Shown piece by piece: positions 19,032 to 28,876 of a stretch of DNA of 32,536 nucleotides; the first letter of the stretch is position 1, and the number at the start of each line of letters is the position of its first letter. The stretch is taken from assembly GCA_012925625.1 (NCBI GenBank), contig GCA_012925625.1_3625.1; one strand, written 5' to 3'. This DNA is from a phage. Made by a program: the position numbers and the translations under genes. The notes below the pieces were generated by a model. The model was not told the DNA's origin, did no database searches, and saw only the letters and a list, made by a program, of their open reading frames with translations.

Positions 19032-19268
19032 TCAGTCACTGTTACCATTCTTATCTGCCTCCTTCATTTTTCTGACGGTTTTACAGTGATCTACCAAGCA
19101 CATAACAACAATGAAGAGAACGACAGGCCAAAAAGGTGCGGCAGTGATTATAGTTATAAAGTCGTCAAACTTAATTTTTCTACAAGATATGATGCAAAGA
19201 GTTGCTAAAACAACCATTGTCAGAAAGGTCAATGCGCAATACCAAACCAACACAGTATCTATGGCCAT
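19032..19268 (-). CDS. small membrane protein (78 aa, two TM helices)
   Basis: Hydrophobic segments LVWYCALTFLTMVVLATLCII and APFWPVVLFIVVMCLV. Confidence 0.55.
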   Translation of the reverse strand: MAIDTVLVWYCALTFLTMVVLATLCIISCRKIKFDDFITIITAAPFWPVVLFIVVMCLVDHCKTVRKMKEADKNGNSD

Positions 19269-19269
19269 A

Positions 19270-19797
19270 TTACATCTCCTGGTTCAAACTGTTAAGAAAG
19301 GATACTCTGTCTTCGCTATTTTTCTCTGTGATATACCCTCCAAACATGGAAAGAATCACATGCTTCAAGTAATCTTTTTCTGGGTCGCTTAGATGATTGC
19401 GTGGCTTTATTTCCACATCATGGTAGTCATACAATCCACAATCATGATACCCCCAGTATCGACACACCTCAATACTGATCGGGAGTTTTTTGTCACACGA
19501 AACTTTCCAACGGGTTACGTTGTTACCAGGGGATAAATCCTCGCCCACCTTCACGAATGACAAATCGTAATTCATAAACTTTTCGTACAGTTTAAGTACA
19601 AAACCCTCTACCTGTGGAGAAACACCAGCCACTAGCTGGGCGTATCTATATTTACTTTCAATAATTTTTCGGCGCTTTGCTGTAAGGTTTATTGCAGCAA
19701 TTTGACTCTCTGAGTATCTCCAAGGCTTATATATAAATGCTTTCGGGTCTTTATCGCCATAAAAATCTTTCCAATCAACCAGTAGCATACCTGTCAC
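19270..19797 (-). CDS. hypothetical protein (175 aa)
   Basis: ORF in track; overlaps upstream stop. Confidence 0.6.
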   Translation of the reverse strand: MTGMLLVDWKDFYGDKDPKAFIYKPWRYSESQIAAINLTAKRRKIIESKYRYAQLVAGVSPQVEGFVLKLYEKFMNYDLSFVKVGEDLSPGNNVTRWKVSCDKKLPISIEVCRYWGYHDCGLYDYHDVEIKPRNHLSDPEKDYLKHVILSMFGGYITEKNSEDRVSFLNSLNQEM

Positions 19798-20027
19798 TCC
19801 TCCACAACTTCAAGGCCTTTGCCGCCTCGTTCTGGTAGATTACTTAAAGACAGGTAATACGTATAGTCAGGAGAGATCCTGCCAGACTCTGCACCTGCAG
19901 ATAGTAAATCTTTTCCCTTAACCATGACAACATTATCGTTTGCAGATAGTCGTTTTGCTTCCACAATTTTACCAACGCAGTCAACCAAGGAAGGGTACCC
20001 TAAATCTGTAAGAAATTTAACTTTCAT
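19794..20027 (-). CDS. small acidic protein, MKVK paralogue family (77 aa)
   Basis: MKVKFLTDLGYP...GKIV...GKDLLSAGA...LEVVEE. Confidence 0.6.
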   Translation of the reverse strand: MKVKFLTDLGYPSLVDCVGKIVEAKRLSANDNVVMVKGKDLLSAGAESGRISPDYTYYLSLSNLPERGGKGLEVVEE

Positions 20028-20066
20028 GCTACCTCCTACTTCTACCGTCCCTGGTAAGATAAATTA

Positions 20067-20465
20067 TTACTGAACAGAGCGCGGAGCTGGGAAGGATAAC
20101 TCTTCTAAAGAGAAGATTTCATTCCCCACAATCCATGTTGCAGGATCATCTGGGTTGACTGGATAGATAATCATCACCTCGTCAGTGTTACATACCCGCT
20201 TTTTACCTGTGGAGTCATCAGCAACCAGCATGCGCGGTTCTTCAGAAATGCACAGGTAGCCTCCTCGGCCCACTGTTCCTTCCACAGGATCTTGTCCTTT
20301 GATCACGATGATTATCTTCTCTCCTGAGGTGATATTACCTTGCACACTCACCGTTTGACCAACTTTAGATGTGCCGAACTTGGTGGTTTCAAACATTAAA
20401 TCTCGAATTACTGTTGCATAGTCTCCAGACACTTTCTTACCTTCTTTAGTGATCTCAATCTTCAT
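20067..20465 (-). CDS. hypothetical protein (132 aa)
   Basis: ORF in track. Confidence 0.55.
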   Translation of the reverse strand: MKIEITKEGKKVSGDYATVIRDLMFETTKFGTSKVGQTVSVQGNITSGEKIIIVIKGQDPVEGTVGRGGYLCISEEPRMLVADDSTGKKRVCNTDEVMIIYPVNPDDPATWIVGNEIFSLEELSFPAPRSVQ

Positions 20466-20728
20466 ACACTGGGCTCCTTAAATGAATCTATGTAATCAAT
20501 TAAATCCCAAGCATCCCTATGACCTGTCAGAGGGTATACTTCTCCAAGAGGGATCATAGCAATAAGTCTATCAAAAACCCAAGCTGGACGCAACATTTTA
20601 TGGTGATACTCCCACTCACCCTCTACAGATTTTTTCTGAGTAATCAGGATCTCTGTGTAGTGTTTCGCCTGTCTTGAGTAAATTGAAAATGACTTGTACA
20701 TAAATGACCCCCTTGTTGATAACAACAA
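20462..20728 (-). CDS. hypothetical protein (88 aa)
   Basis: ORF in track. Confidence 0.5.
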   Translation of the reverse strand: MLLSTRGSFMYKSFSIYSRQAKHYTEILITQKKSVEGEWEYHHKMLRPAWVFDRLIAMIPLGEVYPLTGHRDAWDLIDYIDSFKEPSV

Positions 20729-20735
20729 TACACAA

Positions 20736-21020
20736 CTACCAGGTTACTGTCAAGTAGGCAACCGTGTTATTTTTCTCTGGAGAGATGCCAACAACATCTA
20801 CCTGCAGACCTCCTGCCCTCAAATCCCCAACAATATGCGGGAAGTAATCTGAGAGATGTGAGGGTAGATTTATCGAAAATCCGCATCCCAGAAAGCCTGC
20901 TAACGCTTTATTTTGTATCTCCCCTACAATCGCATCATAAATGGAGTTAAGCTCGTCAGGGAGCGTTACAGGACGTTTTAGCGCTAACTGGTGCAACTTG
21001 TCCTTAGCACTCATTTTCAT
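20736..21020 (-). CDS. hypothetical protein (94 aa)
   Basis: Start placed at internal ATG 21020, which forms an ATGA overlap with the methyltransferase stop. Confidence 0.5.
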   Translation of the reverse strand: MKMSAKDKLHQLALKRPVTLPDELNSIYDAIVGEIQNKALAGFLGCGFSINLPSHLSDYFPHIVGDLRAGGLQVDVVGISPEKNNTVAYLTVTW

Positions 21021-21550
21021 TTCAAATCTGCCTCTGGTGGTGCCAACCACATAAATGGCGGCAAGTCTAGACGGTTTTTCTTGTCCCATACAAAATATGC
21101 ATATGCCTGACCATCCGTTCTACCATTGGATTGGAATGACGGGCGCTTAGATATTGTGATCACAGTGGTAGGTGCATTATCAAGCCACCATTCAAATCTG
21201 GCCTTGCTTTCCAGAAAATTAAGACGCAAAAGCATAATAACTACGTCGGCATCTTTCAACGCCTTGTCCACAAACTCACGAGCCAGACTGTATGGTGGGT
21301 TGGTGATAATACAGTCAACATGGTTGTATTCTGTATTCAGATAGTCAACACCTTCTTGGATTTCTCCCCATGCAGATCCTAACGGCATACGGGAGTAGAA
21401 CACACCTGAGGCACTATTCCTGCAAGGCTCTAAGTAGGTCCAGTCTTCTGGGAACGGAATAAGGTCATACAGCCCTTCTGCACACCACTCCGGTGTTACA
21501 TACTCATCGTAGGCGTTACGTTGTTCATCAGGTTTTCTAGCACAAGTCAT
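21017..21550 (-). CDS. putative small DNA N6-adenine (or N4-cytosine) methyltransferase
   Basis: Catalytic motif IV CIITNPPY (D/N-P-P-Y) preceded by a possible SAM-binding stretch LEPCRNSASG; RBS GGAG. Confidence 0.55.
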   Translation of the reverse strand: MTCARKPDEQRNAYDEYVTPEWCAEGLYDLIPFPEDWTYLEPCRNSASGVFYSRMPLGSAWGEIQEGVDYLNTEYNHVDCIITNPPYSLAREFVDKALKDADVVIMLLRLNFLESKARFEWWLDNAPTTVITISKRPSFQSNGRTDGQAYAYFVWDKKNRLDLPPFMWLAPPEADLK

Positions 21551-21567
21551 GCAAATCTCCAGATCAT

Positions 21568-21596
21568 AAAAGCCCTCCGAAGAGGGCTTTAGAATT
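21568..21596 (-). terminator. UUCG-tetraloop hairpin AAAGCCCUC-UUCG-GAGGGCUUU (minus-strand RNA) after the ClpP-like gene
   Basis: 9-bp stem with UUCG loop read on the minus strand; only a short U-run follows. Confidence 0.4.
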
Positions 21597-21601
21597 AATG
21601 T

Positions 21602-22651
21602 TTAAGCTTCTTCGACAATTCCTGCACCCAGGATTTTTTCATTGAGCTCTTTTGCTGTTTTAATAATATTGTCCACCAGACGCTTGCGCGTCTTATCTTT
21701 CACCTTAACCTCTTCACCGCCGTTCAGAGTAGTCTTCAATTGAGACAGAATATCCTGAAGTTCAACGACAGAGAATCTCTGCAGATCTTCTGAAGTAATC
21801 TCACTCAGGGCAATTCTGACAGTCTCGCCACTTTCCATCTGCAGATTCAGGAACACAGTGTGAACATCACCTTTCGAACCACCCGCTTTTGCAGATTCAA
21901 CAGCATGAACTAACTCATCTAAAGATGTGCACTGGTGAATCTCCGGAAGACCTGCTTCACCTAACACGCCTTCTTCATCACCTTTTGCCAAAAGCTTTTT
22001 CGGTTTTTGTCCGTTCTGGATGCGTTGTATGTTGCCTTCATCCAGAATAATAGCTCCAGTGCGTGCTGCCAGCTCTTCTCCGTCCAACCACACTTCGCCA
22101 CCAGCTGTGATGGATGCGATCTCATCTTCTGTCAGCACCCCACCGTAGTATTTTTCGATCAGGCGTTCAAAACGTTTTTTCCAGTAGCTGACCTGAGTAT
22201 TCATGTTCACACCGTTACCATAAGTGCCACCTTGATAGTAGTGGAACATAAACTCTGTGTCCGGAGCCACAGTACGTTCTTTACAGCCAAGCCATAAGAT
22301 TGTTCCAGCAGAGCAGCACATCCCTTCAGCATGTGCAACAACGCTTGCCTGAGACTCGCGGAATGCCTGCAGATAAGCCATTGCAATGTGCACGCAACCC
22401 CCAGGACTATTGATGATCACCCGAATGCTTTCTTCCGGCTGAGCCATACGGATCGTCTGCAGACGAGACATATGATCTTGTAAGTCTTCCAAATCGTCGA
22501 TATAAAGAACGTGGTCAACAACAGGTGTTGGGTAGCTGTATGTTTCCATAATACCACCCGGCATACCAAACATTTTATTACTCATAGGTTCGAAACCGTT
22601 CTGTTTTTCTTTCATGCCGTGTACCATGGTGCTGCGAGGTGTTAAATTCAT
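21602..22651 (-). CDS. ClpP/S14-family serine peptidase-like protein with ~150-aa C-terminal extension
   Basis: VIINSPGGCV and GMCCSAGT resemble ClpP INSPGG and G-x-A-A-S-M-G (active Ser aligned); RBS AAGGA. Confidence 0.55.
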   Translation of the reverse strand: MNLTPRSTMVHGMKEKQNGFEPMSNKMFGMPGGIMETYSYPTPVVDHVLYIDDLEDLQDHMSRLQTIRMAQPEESIRVIINSPGGCVHIAMAYLQAFRESQASVVAHAEGMCCSAGTILWLGCKERTVAPDTEFMFHYYQGGTYGNGVNMNTQVSYWKKRFERLIEKYYGGVLTEDEIASITAGGEVWLDGEELAARTGAIILDEGNIQRIQNGQKPKKLLAKGDEEGVLGEAGLPEIHQCTSLDELVHAVESAKAGGSKGDVHTVFLNLQMESGETVRIALSEITSEDLQRFSVVELQDILSQLKTTLNGGEEVKVKDKTRKRLVDNIIKTAKELNEKILGAGIVEEA

Positions 22652-22711
22652 GAGAAATCCTTAATATTGGAAGTTGAAAGCTATTTATTTAAACCTGATT
22701 CACATTTACCT

Positions 22712-23023
22712 TTATTTAGCAATCACTAGGGAATACTTACGATTGTCAGAAGCATCACAGCTCAATGATTGCCAGTCTACCACATACCACGTATCATTGT
22801 CAACAATTACTTTATCGCCTGTTCTGTAGCAGGTGCTGCTTTCAATAATCCGAGACTCGATAAAGAATCTGTGTCGGCGCTCACGTAGCAACGCTAAGTT
22901 GATTATATTACCACCACTGTCCTTGATCCACACATTCTTGGATCCTTTATTTGCCAAAATTGTCTCGCCGTTATAGACAAACAGGCAGTATATTTTATTC
23001 AGTCTCTCTTGTATTGTAGCCAT
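22712..23023 (-). CDS. hypothetical protein (103 aa)
   Basis: ORF in track; RBS GAAGGAGATA; downstream of the 23054-23082 promoter. Confidence 0.55.
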   Translation of the reverse strand: MATIQERLNKIYCLFVYNGETILANKGSKNVWIKDSGGNIINLALLRERRHRFFIESRIIESSTCYRTGDKVIVDNDTWYVVDWQSLSCDASDNRKYSLVIAK

Positions 23024-25128: not shown

Positions 25129-26400
25129 TCAGCAACCACAACTTCCGTAGTGCTTAACCCGTTCTATAACTTCCGCTTGCTTACCTTTATTGTAAGGACG
25201 GGAGTTTGGACTAGACAGGTACCCGGATACACGTCTGATCACACTGATCGTTCCCTCTTCATGGTTTCCACACTCTGGGCATACGAATCCCTTAGCTGTT
25301 GCACTGAACTCACCAGAGAAACCACACTTAAGACATTTATCCACAGGCTGGTTGATACCAAAATACATAATGTGTTTATATCCGAAATCAACAAGAGCTT
25401 CCAAAGCATCTAAGTTGTTTTTCAGATTTGGTGTCTCTACGTATCCGATGTTGCCACCAGAAGAGATCATAGCAAAACCTTCCTCATACTCCCACTTATC
25501 AAAAGGCGAGCTATTGATCCATACTGGCTGATGGAAACTGTTGGTGAGATATTCATGCTCGTGCTTCAACACTTCAGGATATTCACGATCCAGACAGGTT
25601 GCAGCTTTATAGCATAGACTCTCAGAAGGGGTGCCGTACAAGCTAAACGCTAGTCTACTTTCCTTCTTGTATCGCTCACAAGCATCTCTCATGTGCTGAA
25701 GTATTCCAAGAGCTAAAGCCTTGTCACCCTCCCTGCCCAAAATCTGACAGGTTTCATACACACCAATATACCCAATACTGATGGAAGCGTACCCGTCATA
25801 GAAGAGTTTATCAATACTCTCTTCAGGATCCAGGCGAGCAAGAGCGCCTTCACACCACATGATAGGGTTCTGCCCTGCCTTTGTTCCTTTTAGACGGTTA
25901 ACCCTTACAAGGTGAGCCTCGTATGCAAGATCCAGGTATTCGTCAAGAACTGCAAAGAAATCAACACCTTCCGTTTTAGCTTTTGCCGCAATCATTGGCA
26001 GGTTAAGGCTAACAACGCCTAAGTTAAATCTGCCAAGGTATTTCTCCTCTCCTGTTTCCAAGTCATTGTATTTGCTAAGAAAACTCCGGCAACCCATGCT
26101 CGTTACTTTACCATCTGTCGAGCCTGTCACTTTACGATTTAGTGGAACAGAAACAAAGTCAGGATAAATCCGCTCTGCAGAGCATTCCAGAGCTAATCGT
26201 TTCAAATCATAGTTAGGATCTCCAGGGTTCATGTTGACACCCTCTTCTAGGAAGAACAGCACTTTAGGGAACACAGGTGTGATACGTTCTTCACCAAGAC
26301 CCATTTTGTGGACTTTCAAGTAGTTTTTGGTAATCATTCTACCAAATACTGAGGTGTCCAGACCTAAACTTAATGTGATAAAAGGGGTTTGCGGTCCCCA
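25129..26400 (-). CDS. nrdD: anaerobic ribonucleoside-triphosphate reductase, exon 2 (C-terminal part)
   Basis: Glycyl-radical motif RVSGYL, zinc-site CLKCG...CPECG; reading frame stays open upstream of the track ATG to 26400 (WGPQTPFITLSLGLDTS...). Confidence 0.8.
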   Translation of the reverse strand, partial: WGPQTPFITLSLGLDTSVFGRMITKNYLKVHKMGLGEERITPVFPKVLFFLEEGVNMNPGDPNYDLKRLALECSAERIYPDFVSVPLNRKVTGSTDGKVTSMGCRSFLSKYNDLETGEEKYLGRFNLGVVSLNLPMIAAKAKTEGVDFFAVLDEYLDLAYEAHLVRVNRLKGTKAGQNPIMWCEGALARLDPEESIDKLFYDGYASISIGYIGVYETCQILGREGDKALALGILQHMRDACERYKKESRLAFSLYGTPSESLCYKAATCLDREYPEVLKHEHEYLTNSFHQPVWINSSPFDKWEYEEGFAMISSGGNIGYVETPNLKNNLDALEALVDFGYKHIMYFGINQPVDKCLKCGFSGEFSATAKGFVCPECGNHEEGTISVIRRVSGYLSSPNSRPYNKGKQAEVIERVKHYGSCGC

Positions 26401-26648
26401 CCCTTATGTTTCCACAAGGCCAGACTATCTCTTGCCTGAAATCACACCGTGTGATTCTTAATCAGACCTCTGCGTTTCGGAATCTTCCATAATCCCTACA
26501 CCAAAAGGTTAGTCGTTACAACCGCCTCACTCCTTGTGAAGCTAGTCACGGGATTGGCATAGCTTTCGCCTTAGCGTTCCCCGTTAGCCAGCGATCAGCT
26601 GACCCCTCATACTGAGGTTAGCAGAGTTTTAAAACGGCCAGTTTGTTA
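26401..26648 (-). ncRNA. group I self-splicing intron (ORF-less, ~248 nt) interrupting nrdD
   Basis: Minus-strand RNA shows P1 pairing AACGGU with GCCGUU ending in U.G, ACGGGGAAC...AAUCCCGUG (P4/P6), GACUA paired with AAGAGAUAGUCUGG (P7), GAAA-capped P9 hairpin and terminal G; boundaries +/- a few nt. Confidence 0.75.
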
Positions 26649-27509
26649 ACCGTTGACAGAAGTTAACGTATTGATTTGATAGAGCAAAGTCTGCATGCTG
26701 TCAAATACGTCTTTATCTGTCATTTGCATTGCAACAGTCTCAGCATCTGGCAACCAATGTTCCTGGCAAAATTTAAGGTTCTTCTCATAGGTCGCTTCAG
26801 CATACTGTGCCAGATAATGATCAATATGGCTCATAGTCTGACCCCCATATTGAGCACTAGCTACTGCACTAGAGATTTGGCTAAGGATTGTTGTTGCAAC
26901 CCCTATTGACTTCGGCTTACTGACATGGGCGTTACCAATGTTGAATCCGTTTTCCAACATGTCGGGATAATTTACCAAACAACAGTTTGTTAACGGACTG
27001 ATCAAGTAGTCAAGATCATGCACATGGATGAAGCCTTTATTGTGCTCTTCTGAGACACGGTCTGGCAGGATCTGTGTTGATGCAAGATGTTTGCTAAGGA
27101 TTCCTGCAAGCAGGTCACGATGAGTGTGTACATGATTAGTAGGCTTATTTGCGTTTTCTTTTGTAAATTCATCACAAGTTCGATCCAAGAAGCCACTAAT
27201 ATCTGCAAGCAGTTTTCCACCTGCCTCTCTGTTATTATCTCTTGTCTGCCTATATTGGATGTATTCTCTGGCTGCACATTTTAAACCCATATCCATAAGA
27301 GCGTCTTCAACAAGGATATGGATATTTTTTACAGAGATCGTGCACTGATCGGTTGGTAGATTGTTAGCAACAACTTCATTAACCGCACAGGCGATCCGGT
27401 AAGCTTCTTCTTCAGTATGTCCAGACTCAAGTAAGGCGGACTCTGCCGCCTTGATCACCTTAATTCCGTTATAGAACTCTTCTCTACCGTCCCGTTTTAC
27501 AACTTTCAC
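26649..27509 (-). CDS. nrdD: anaerobic ribonucleoside-triphosphate reductase, exon 1 (N-terminal part with ATP-cone)
   Basis: N-terminus MKVVKRDGREEFYNGIKVIKA is ATP-cone-like; frame closes in the intron 3 nt past the proposed 5' splice site. Confidence 0.8.
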
Positions 27510-27784
27510 TTTTTCTCTCCAAAACCATTCTTAACAAAAGAGATGAAATCGTCAGCACCGCCTATATGGACACTGTCAAGATCGCTCTCTAAGAAGATCT
27601 GCGGCAACGTTCTAGGGACGATTGGACTACACTTCTCAATAAGCTCTTCTTTTGTATAGCCCTCGCCAAGTGTCTTATATACAAAAGGCAGATCTTTGCT
27701 GACTGCAAATTCTTTTGCTCTTACACAATGTGGGCAGTTATCTTTACCGTAAATGATAAAGAAAAAAGATTTTTCACAGCTCAT
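27506..27784 (-). CDS. nrdC: glutaredoxin-like protein (phage NrdC/NrdH-type redoxin)
   Basis: Active-site CPHC, glutaredoxin motifs TLPQIF and GGADD; lies between nrdB and nrdD. Confidence 0.75.
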   Translation of the reverse strand: MSCEKSFFFIIYGKDNCPHCVRAKEFAVSKDLPFVYKTLGEGYTKEELIEKCSPIVPRTLPQIFLESDLDSVHIGGADDFISFVKNGFGEKK

Positions 27785-27787
27785 ATA

Positions 27788-28876
27788 TTAAAACTCCCAA
27801 ATTTCTTCTTCAGCGTCGTTAACAGTTGTGTTGACGCGGTAGTCGGTGTTCGACATTTCCTGGTTAGCCGTCTGTTGCAATGAAGGTTTCATCCACACCT
27901 GCATAAACGGTAGCGGGTCCTTTGTTGGCGGCACAAAGTCTTTGTCGATGCCGTAGTAATCATAAATCGGTGAGCAGTTATAGTCAACCCATTCTTTAAG
28001 CAACGGTGAGTTAAGACCTATAATCGCTCTTCCTTCGCTGAAAATATAGTCACTCCAACCGTACTCTTTGGTTCGTACTTCATCAAGAATCTCTTTTAAC
28101 TCCCCTTTTATCTCAAGGAAGCTTTTCTCCCATGCTGGATCATTAAGCAGGATATCAATGATGGCAAAATCACCTTTCGAGTGTAGCATTTCATCAAGCA
28201 TGATTTTTTGAACAAGCTGCGCCACCTGAACAAAAATACCCTGTTCAGCTACTGCGAAAGTGCATGCAAAACTTGCAATAAACTCAATACTTTCCAGGGC
28301 TAAAAGTGCAAAAAGCGCTCTAAGAATGCATTTCCGCACAATATCTTCTTCAACACTAGAAGGATCCAGTCGGTATTTTGCACCAATGACCTCAAGCTCT
28401 TGCATGTATTTGACAATAACGCCAGATCTGCTCAGAACGTTTTGGTTTTCCTGAATCTCTTCTATAATCTCACGGGCATTGGGGAGGCATTGTCTAACAA
28501 TCTCTGAGTAAGTTAGTGCGTGAAGAACTTCAATCTCTGACTGTTTCATCAATAGAGTGAAAAGCTCACTATTAGTGATGAATGGTGAAAAGAGGCAGAT
28601 GATCGATCTTGCCGCAACGCTATCAGCCTCCCATTGCCACATCAAGGTCTGCACCATCACATCATAAGTTGACTTGGAGCATGTTACAAAATCTGAAATA
28701 GATTGCGACAAATCCACTTCATCCTCTGCCCAGTCTTGTTCTTTTTGTTTTTTGTACAGTTCGAACAGTTGTGGATATTTTTTGTTGATAGAGTCGTACA
28801 TACCCATTTGCTGTCCCAGAAACAGCGGATAGTCACCAGTTTTATGAGCGGTGTTCTCAGCATTAAATACAGCCAT
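27788..28876 (-). CDS. nrdB: ribonucleotide reductase class Ia small subunit
   Basis: ~362 aa directly downstream of nrdA; start placed at MAVFNAENT with RBS GAGGT (track ORF extends 20 codons upstream without RBS). Confidence 0.8.
   Translation of the reverse strand: MAVFNAENTAHKTGDYPLFLGQQMGMYDSINKKYPQLFELYKKQKEQDWAEDEVDLSQSISDFVTCSKSTYDVMVQTLMWQWEADSVAARSIICLFSPFITNSELFTLLMKQSEIEVLHALTYSEIVRQCLPNAREIIEEIQENQNVLSRSGVIVKYMQELEVIGAKYRLDPSSVEEDIVRKCILRALFALLALESIEFIASFACTFAVAEQGIFVQVAQLVQKIMLDEMLHSKGDFAIIDILLNDPAWEKSFLEIKGELKEILDEVRTKEYGWSDYIFSEGRAIIGLNSPLLKEWVDYNCSPIYDYYGIDKDFVPPTKDPLPFMQVWMKPSLQQTANQEMSNTDYRVNTTVNDAEEEIWEF

Follow-up and report, generated by a model that had tools for sequence, protein, structure and literature searches.

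A 177-residue protein of a Vequintavirus is most likely an orphan GATC N6-adenine methyltransferase with little beyond a gamma-class catalytic domain

On the minus strand of a 32,536-nucleotide stretch of phage DNA (contig GCA_012925625.1_3625.1; hereafter the window), positions 21017..21550 encode a protein of 177 amino acids that is best explained, with a probability of roughly 0.93, as a stand-alone (orphan) SAM-dependent DNA N6-adenine methyltransferase for GATC, with little beyond a gamma-class, M.TaqI-like Rossmann catalytic domain. The enzyme is already known, as it is widely annotated and an identical protein has published genetics and methylome data. The coding sequence, taken from the ORF list, starts with ATG, ends with TGA and is orthologous to bas54_0170. 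The original prediction, made from the letters alone, had placed a very small NPPY-type phage DNA methyltransferase at exactly these coordinates without giving the strand, and had named an HMM search and long-read methylation calling of phage DNA as checks. Both have come out in its favor: the protein matches a methyltransferase family (PHROG 799), and in the literature the identical protein makes GATC 6mA, which is lost in a T83P mutant.

The window protein is identical in 177/177 residues to bas51_0176 (QXV85686.1) of phage Bas51, which by its locus tags is Escherichia phage WalterGehring (MZ501111). With no difference at the protein level, the GATC 6mA, the triggering of retrons Asa1 and Squ1 and the overexpression toxicity described for bas51_0176 therefore apply to the window protein as well. 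The two genes also share their context, with a ClpP-like protease upstream, a 94-aa gene downstream and a glycosidase 1.2 kb further on. Bas51 phages were selected for escape from retrons Asa1 and Squ1 (Nakamura et al., PLoS Biol 2025; PMC12548924), and the escape mutations D69G, D79G and T83P were found in a Bas51 'N6 adenine methyltransferase'; each of the three, when rebuilt in a clean background, abolished defence (PMC12548924). The annotation 'putative N6 adenine methyltransferase' is found on three Bas51 genes, which encode 441 aa (bas51_0070), 177 aa (bas51_0176) and 272 aa (bas51_0200), and a Dcm-like gene is present as well. Among these four annotated methyltransferases, D69/D79/T83 fit only bas51_0176, the others having C/G/E, Q/A/I and F/A/I at these positions. 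In addition, the Bas51 glycosidase has R87, in agreement with the R87* reported in the same study (PMC12548924). In the window protein, D69G falls in motif III, and D79G and T83P fall in motif IV.

When 6mA was called on Bas51 DNA by nanopore sequencing, a clean GATC logo emerged, which was lost in the T83P phage (PMC12548924). The methylated adenines numbered 1405 in GATC, 509 in GTAC and 576 elsewhere in the wild type, and 35, 511 and 349, respectively, in T83P (PMC12548924 source data), where the calls count only positions above 60% and were made on phages from dam+ hosts; partial methylation by host Dam is thus hidden behind the count of 35 residual sites. We counted 703 GATC sites, or 1406 adenines, in MZ501111; with 1405 of them called, methylation is essentially complete. 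For the identical protein it has been shown in this way that GATC on phage DNA receives N6-adenine methylation and that T83 (motif IV) and D69 (motif III) are required for it (PMC12548924). A plasmid that supplies the methyltransferase alone is sufficient to set off Retron-Squ1 in Serratia quinivorans and to cause toxicity in E. coli (PMC12548924), and no other phage protein is therefore needed for those effects.

The window is a segment of a Vequintavirus (rV5-like) genome. A megablast of positions 20000..23000 returned 122 phage records, the best of which was Escherichia phage MaxBurger (Bas54, MZ501093) at 99.9% identity, and the methyltransferase gene itself is 99.8% identical in DNA sequence to that of MaxBurger versus 98.3% to that of Bas51. 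In MaxBurger, bas54_0170 is annotated as 'putative N6 adenine methyltransferase', and the orthologue carries a DNA or N6-adenine methyltransferase label in dozens of rV5-like phage records. In MaxBurger the gene has the ClpP-like protease gene on one side and a series of small hypothetical genes on the other, and the block to which it belongs is transcribed leftward and also contains PhoH and ribonucleotide reductase genes. The ClpP-like gene was considered as a possible prohead protease and rejected, since Bas51 has separate prohead protease and scaffold genes in its structural module; the methyltransferase therefore belongs to a leftward block of small genes and nucleotide metabolism and not among the head genes. 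The ClpP-like protease (349 aa, 21602..22651 (-), PHROG 5410), distinct from the prohead protease of the phage, contains Pfam CLP_protease at residues 59-168 and a C-terminal extension of ~150 aa with unknown function, and its gene adjoins that of the methyltransferase not only in Vequintavirus records but also in several further Vequintavirinae-like phages.

Three further observations were made on this region. The gene at 19264..19788 (-), bas54_0165, is orthologous to the 'putative glycosidase' gene of Bas51; it is transcribed in the same direction as the methyltransferase gene and follows it at a distance of only 1.2 kb downstream. The class III anaerobic ribonucleotide reductase gene at ~25129..27836 (-) is annotated as two joined pieces in the near-identical MaxBurger record, and a putative homing endonuclease gene is found inside the gap at 26431..26991 (-) (coordinates converted from MaxBurger), which indicates an intron-borne or intein-like insertion. 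Between 18 and 33 unannotated 'Campylobacter phage' records (MG0656xx, e.g. H12, H14-H18, H65-H67; host Campylobacter jejuni) are 95-99% identical in the methyltransferase region to E. coli rV5-like phages; their host labels look wrong, or the phages look like contaminants.

A Shine-Dalgarno sequence, GGAGA, was read at 21556..21560 (-), 5 nt ahead of the methyltransferase ATG. At its other end the gene shares an ATGA stop/start overlap (21017..21020 (-), from the sequence and annotation) with the 94-aa downstream gene (20737..21020 (-), from the ORF list and annotation), which belongs to PHROG 12158 and has no known function. This overlap suggests translational coupling from the methyltransferase to the 94-aa gene. 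A scan for promoters and terminators near the methyltransferase gene gave nothing above shuffled expectation. RNA folding revealed a hairpin between the ClpP-like and methyltransferase genes at 21569..21590 (-), with a perfect 9-bp stem and a UUCG tetraloop (AAAGCCCUC-UUCG-GAGGGCUUU), placed between the ClpP-like stop and the methyltransferase Shine-Dalgarno sequence and with a weak U tract behind it. Folding of the 66-nt segment that contains it (21545..21610) yields -16 kcal/mol with z=-1.8, and the hairpin was not called by a simple terminator scan; it may serve as a weak terminator or affect the stability of the RNA.

Searches with the full protein matched PHROG 799, 'DNA methyltransferase', over residues 1-172 (E=5.1e-67, 228 bits). 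None of the curated Pfam/NCBIfam models reaches its threshold for the window protein: EcoRI_methylase (PF13651) scores 20.1 bits against a gathering cut-off of 26.4 and covers only residues 76-125, Dam (PF05869) scores 19.2 bits against 28.1, and TIGR01712 scores 16.1 bits against 97.05. When 30 homologues were scanned singly, Pfam matches at E<=0.01 were obtained with EcoRI_methylase for 12/30 (best 3e-05), with PF05869 for 9/30 and with Eco57I for 5/30. When 1.84 billion cluster representatives were searched with the family profile, 1,273 clusters matched at E<=1e-30, and the number rose to 10,326 with the threshold relaxed to E<=1e-10. The 150 best representatives almost all measure 154-260 aa, so that being small is characteristic of this large family and does not reflect truncation.

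The catalytic motif IV, D79-CIITNPPY87, with CIITNPPY at residues 80-87 as originally proposed, can be read directly at 21290..21316 (-) as GAC TGT ATT ATC ACC AAC CCA CCA TAC. In a six-frame translation of the window, the methyltransferase is the only ORF of more than 94 codons that contains (D/N/S)PP(Y/F/W/H), so CIITNPPY is not a chance motif. A SAM-binding stretch had been suspected upstream, and the family-profile alignment bears this out, as motifs X, I, II and III precede motif IV in the same way as in M.TaqI. Motif X, Y17-V-T-P20 (21491..21502 (-)), was located in the alignment of 30 homologues and pairs with the ETP of M.TaqI. The SAM-binding loop of motif I, L40-EPCRNSASGVF51 (21398..21433 (-)), as well as motif II, G62-EIQE66, and motif III, V68-DYL71 (together 21338..21367 (-)), were located with both the homologue and the M.TaqI alignments. 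The order of these elements in the alignment of the profile with M.TaqI, ETP (X), LEPxxxxGxF (I), EI(D/Q) (II), (A/V)D(F/Y)L (III) and NPPY (IV), is the gamma-class arrangement.

Among the 30 homologues used for conservation analysis (34-72% identity to the window protein), T19, P20, T83, N84, P85, P86, L107, R109, L113, R118, R136, D146, Y150 and W155 are invariant, and conservation is 90% or higher at E41, P42 and D69. The family consensus of motif I is LEPCxGxG; the rV5 clade has EPCRNSASG, with a 2-residue insertion and loss of the first glycine, and thus has a motif I without the canonical GxG, yet the enzyme is active (PMC12548924). R136-P-S-F139 (21134..21145 (-)), picked out by conservation and located near the C-terminal end of the fold, together with the following loop carrying the invariant D146, Y150 and W155, is a candidate base-pocket or DNA-contact region.

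Searching the PDB by sequence with the protein on its own returned nothing beyond noise (E>0.6). The family profile reached M.TaqI at E=1e-4 and also Erm. The AF2 model (pLDDT 89.9, pTM 0.86) has a class I Rossmann-like fold that can be superposed on the TaqI catalytic domain, and the catalytic domain of M.TaqI is the closest structural kin of the window protein. A C-terminal target-recognition domain is absent; the protein ends at residue 177, and the structural matches align catalytic domains only. Could the protein primarily be an RNA adenine methyltransferase of the KsgA/Erm/METTL5/TrmN6 type, with DNA methylation as a side or indirect effect? We consider this hardly credible. The T83P mutant loses 6mA at essentially all 1406 phage GATC adenines with GTAC untouched, and the window protein shows neither of the two features looked for in rRNA/tRNA adenine methyltransferases, having no Pfam RrnaAD match and lacking the C-terminal RNA-binding domain of KsgA and Erm.

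As a DNA methyltransferase, the protein differs from the M.TaqI-type enzymes in its extent. M.TaqI, the HsdM subunit of type I systems, MmeI, CamA and M.BseCI are 380 to more than 600 aa long and have a separate target-recognition domain or an HsdS subunit, whereas the window protein stops at 177 aa, where the catalytic domain ends, and its identity to M.TaqI-type enzymes is only 14-20%. More similar in build are the small phage Dams of PF05869/TIGR01712, which are likewise small, orphan, phage-encoded enzymes with an NPPY-type motif IV and without a large recognition domain. T1 Dam matches PF05869 with 236 bits, HP2 Dam is assigned to this family by the annotation of the T1 record, and HP1 Dam is of the same type; the T1 and HP1 enzymes are specific for GATC. 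We therefore considered whether the methyltransferase family is a divergent part of PF05869 and rejected this, as 0/30 members pass the 28.1-bit cut-off (best, P0083, 25.1 bits). An hhalign comparison of the family with T1 Dam gave 46% probability over 31 columns around motifs IV-VI, and judged from these profiles the two appear only marginally related. The classical Dams of E. coli (278 aa) and T4 (259 aa) are alpha-class enzymes of PF02086 (MethyltransfD12) that form the same product, G(m6A)TC, from the same cofactor. In alpha-class enzymes the recognition domain lies between motifs I and IV, which gives them another motif order than that of the window protein. PF02086 had no match at E<=10 for the window protein and none at E<=0.01 for the 30 family members. 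Scores below the PF05869 cut-off and the absence of a PF02086 match therefore place the enzyme in a separate lineage with the same specificity, Dam-like in function and belonging to neither Dam family.

The orphan status put forward originally, on the grounds that no endonuclease is adjacent, holds. Within 3 kb, no nuclease signature was found by Pfam, PADLOC or PHROG, and apart from the ClpP-like protease the neighbors have only PHROG matches of unknown function and no Pfam or PADLOC match. The nearest annotated nuclease is the intron-borne homing endonuclease about 5 kb away. No HsdS-like neighbor of the methyltransferase is present. The 94-aa gene, however, has to be considered as a partner, because it overlaps the methyltransferase by ATGA and is adjacent to it throughout the Vequintavirinae. 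If the protein only stimulated or recruited host Dam, or needed a recognition partner such as the 94-aa protein in the way HsdM needs HsdS, this would also fit the lack of a recognition domain in 177 aa and the fact that the published data all come from dam+ cells (PMC12548924). Such a helper or partner role is nevertheless very improbable. The escape mutations strike the motifs for SAM binding and catalysis (D69 of motif III and T83 of motif IV), which is what a genuine enzyme should show, the methyltransferase expressed alone is sufficient to trigger Retron-Squ1 in Serratia and to be toxic in E. coli, and most family members work without the 94-aa protein, which occurs in 190 phage records versus 544 for the methyltransferase. 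These record numbers and the activity of the methyltransferase from a plasmid (PMC12548924) led us to reject the 94-aa protein as an obligate partner or specificity subunit.

The methyltransferase ORF of Mydovirus relatives is longer, at 226-227 aa (in Klebsiella phage KpS8, L013:984-1779 corresponds to positions 20737..21550 of the window). The ~57 codons added at its C-terminal end show poor conservation and run, in another frame, across the homologue of the 94-aa gene, and a fusion with a recognition domain was rejected on both counts. Some Mydovirus annotations leave out the homologue of the 94-aa gene.

The window contains 190 GATC sites, 1.11x the Markov expectation and 1.6x the expectation from base composition. 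With a number above expectation, GATC is not avoided, as would suit a phage that modifies this site. Among the 4-bp palindromes of the window only one is more strongly depleted than GTAC, which has 65 observed versus 96.5 Markov-expected sites. In Bas51, about 509-511/516 GTAC adenines are called as 6mA in wild type and T83P alike (PMC12548924; sites counted here). Since GTAC methylation is unchanged in T83P, a different enzyme must methylate GTAC. Candidates are bas51_0070 (PF01555, 441 aa, L010:14456-15781 (+)) and bas51_0200 (272 aa, with GNPPF and no Pfam match, L011:24069-24887 (-)), both located outside the window, and a basecaller artefact is also possible.

A specificity broader than GATC, for a degenerate GAT/ATC-like site or for single-stranded DNA, with GATC merely dominant at the 60% cut-off, appears unlikely but deserves more weight. 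No recognition domain enforces a 4-bp readout, the presumed retron target msDNA is largely single-stranded, and overexpression is toxic in E. coli, whose GATC is already modified (PMC12548924). Also, the number of methylated adenines outside GATC and GTAC falls from 576 to 349 in T83P, but these 227 lost calls may be basecaller bleed-through beside GATC, and a clean GATC logo with 1405/1406 GATC adenines methylated argues for a narrow site. As to the effects of Dam overproduction, SeqA and MutH need the hemimethylated state, and the toxicity could come from its abolition.

Taking the protein as a GATC-specific enzyme, a mechanism can be proposed. By homology with M.TaqI, motifs X, I, II and III would bind SAM, and the TNPPY loop of motif IV would hold the flipped adenine and catalyze methyl transfer. 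Without a separate target-recognition domain, GATC would have to be read by loops of the catalytic domain, possibly in a dimer, with R136-P-S-F and the segment containing D146/Y150/W155 as candidates. During infection the enzyme methylates all ~700 GATC sites of the phage, for which host Dam alone falls short. One demonstrated consequence is that certain retron abortive-infection systems are triggered, probably through methylation of GATC in their msDNA. From the presence of GATC in the ncRNA, the authors of the Bas51 study deduced that the retrons are activated via methylated GATC in the msDNA (PMC12548924). This resembles two other retrons that respond to methyltransferases encoded by prophages or phages, as Retron-Sen2 is triggered by Dam (Bobonis et al., bioRxiv 10.1101/2020.06.22.160242) and Retron-Eco1 by a phage cytosine methyltransferase (as summarised in PMC12916289). 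The logic is the same in that a phage DNA methyltransferase modifies msDNA and a toxic effector is released. The present case differs in that the methyltransferase is of another lineage, the retrons are others (Asa1 and Squ1) and methylation of the msDNA is presumed.

The likely benefit to the phage would be protection from methylation-sensitive restriction enzymes that cut GATC, in line with the protective role suggested originally. In the BASEL study, the Vequintavirinae were described as 'exceptionally susceptible' to the RM systems tested, and methylation-sensitive GATC cutters are therefore the only enzymes against which the methylation could shield the phage. A literature search for DpnI/MboI digest data on rV5-like phages found nothing usable. 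The sole demonstrated biological consequence is the opposite of protection, namely the triggering of retrons Asa1 and Squ1 (PMC12548924).

We tentatively propose, at somewhat less than even odds, that GATC is read by the catalytic domain alone, without a recognition domain or partner and perhaps as a dimer, so that this Dam-type specificity would have an origin separate from both classical Dam and PF05869, in a family that numbers over 1,000 clusters and has no Pfam/NCBIfam model. If so, the toxicity and the 227 lost non-GATC calls would point to a relaxed or single-strand-tolerant readout, which in turn would explain why the enzyme is sensed by msDNA-based retrons. A sequence-specific methyltransferase of ~170 residues, whose very large family lacks a curated model, lends itself well to studying how 4 bp are read without a recognition domain, and may provide a compact tool for GATC methylation. 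For the phage, self-methylation can be a liability, since it triggers retrons, and may at the same time act as a shield.
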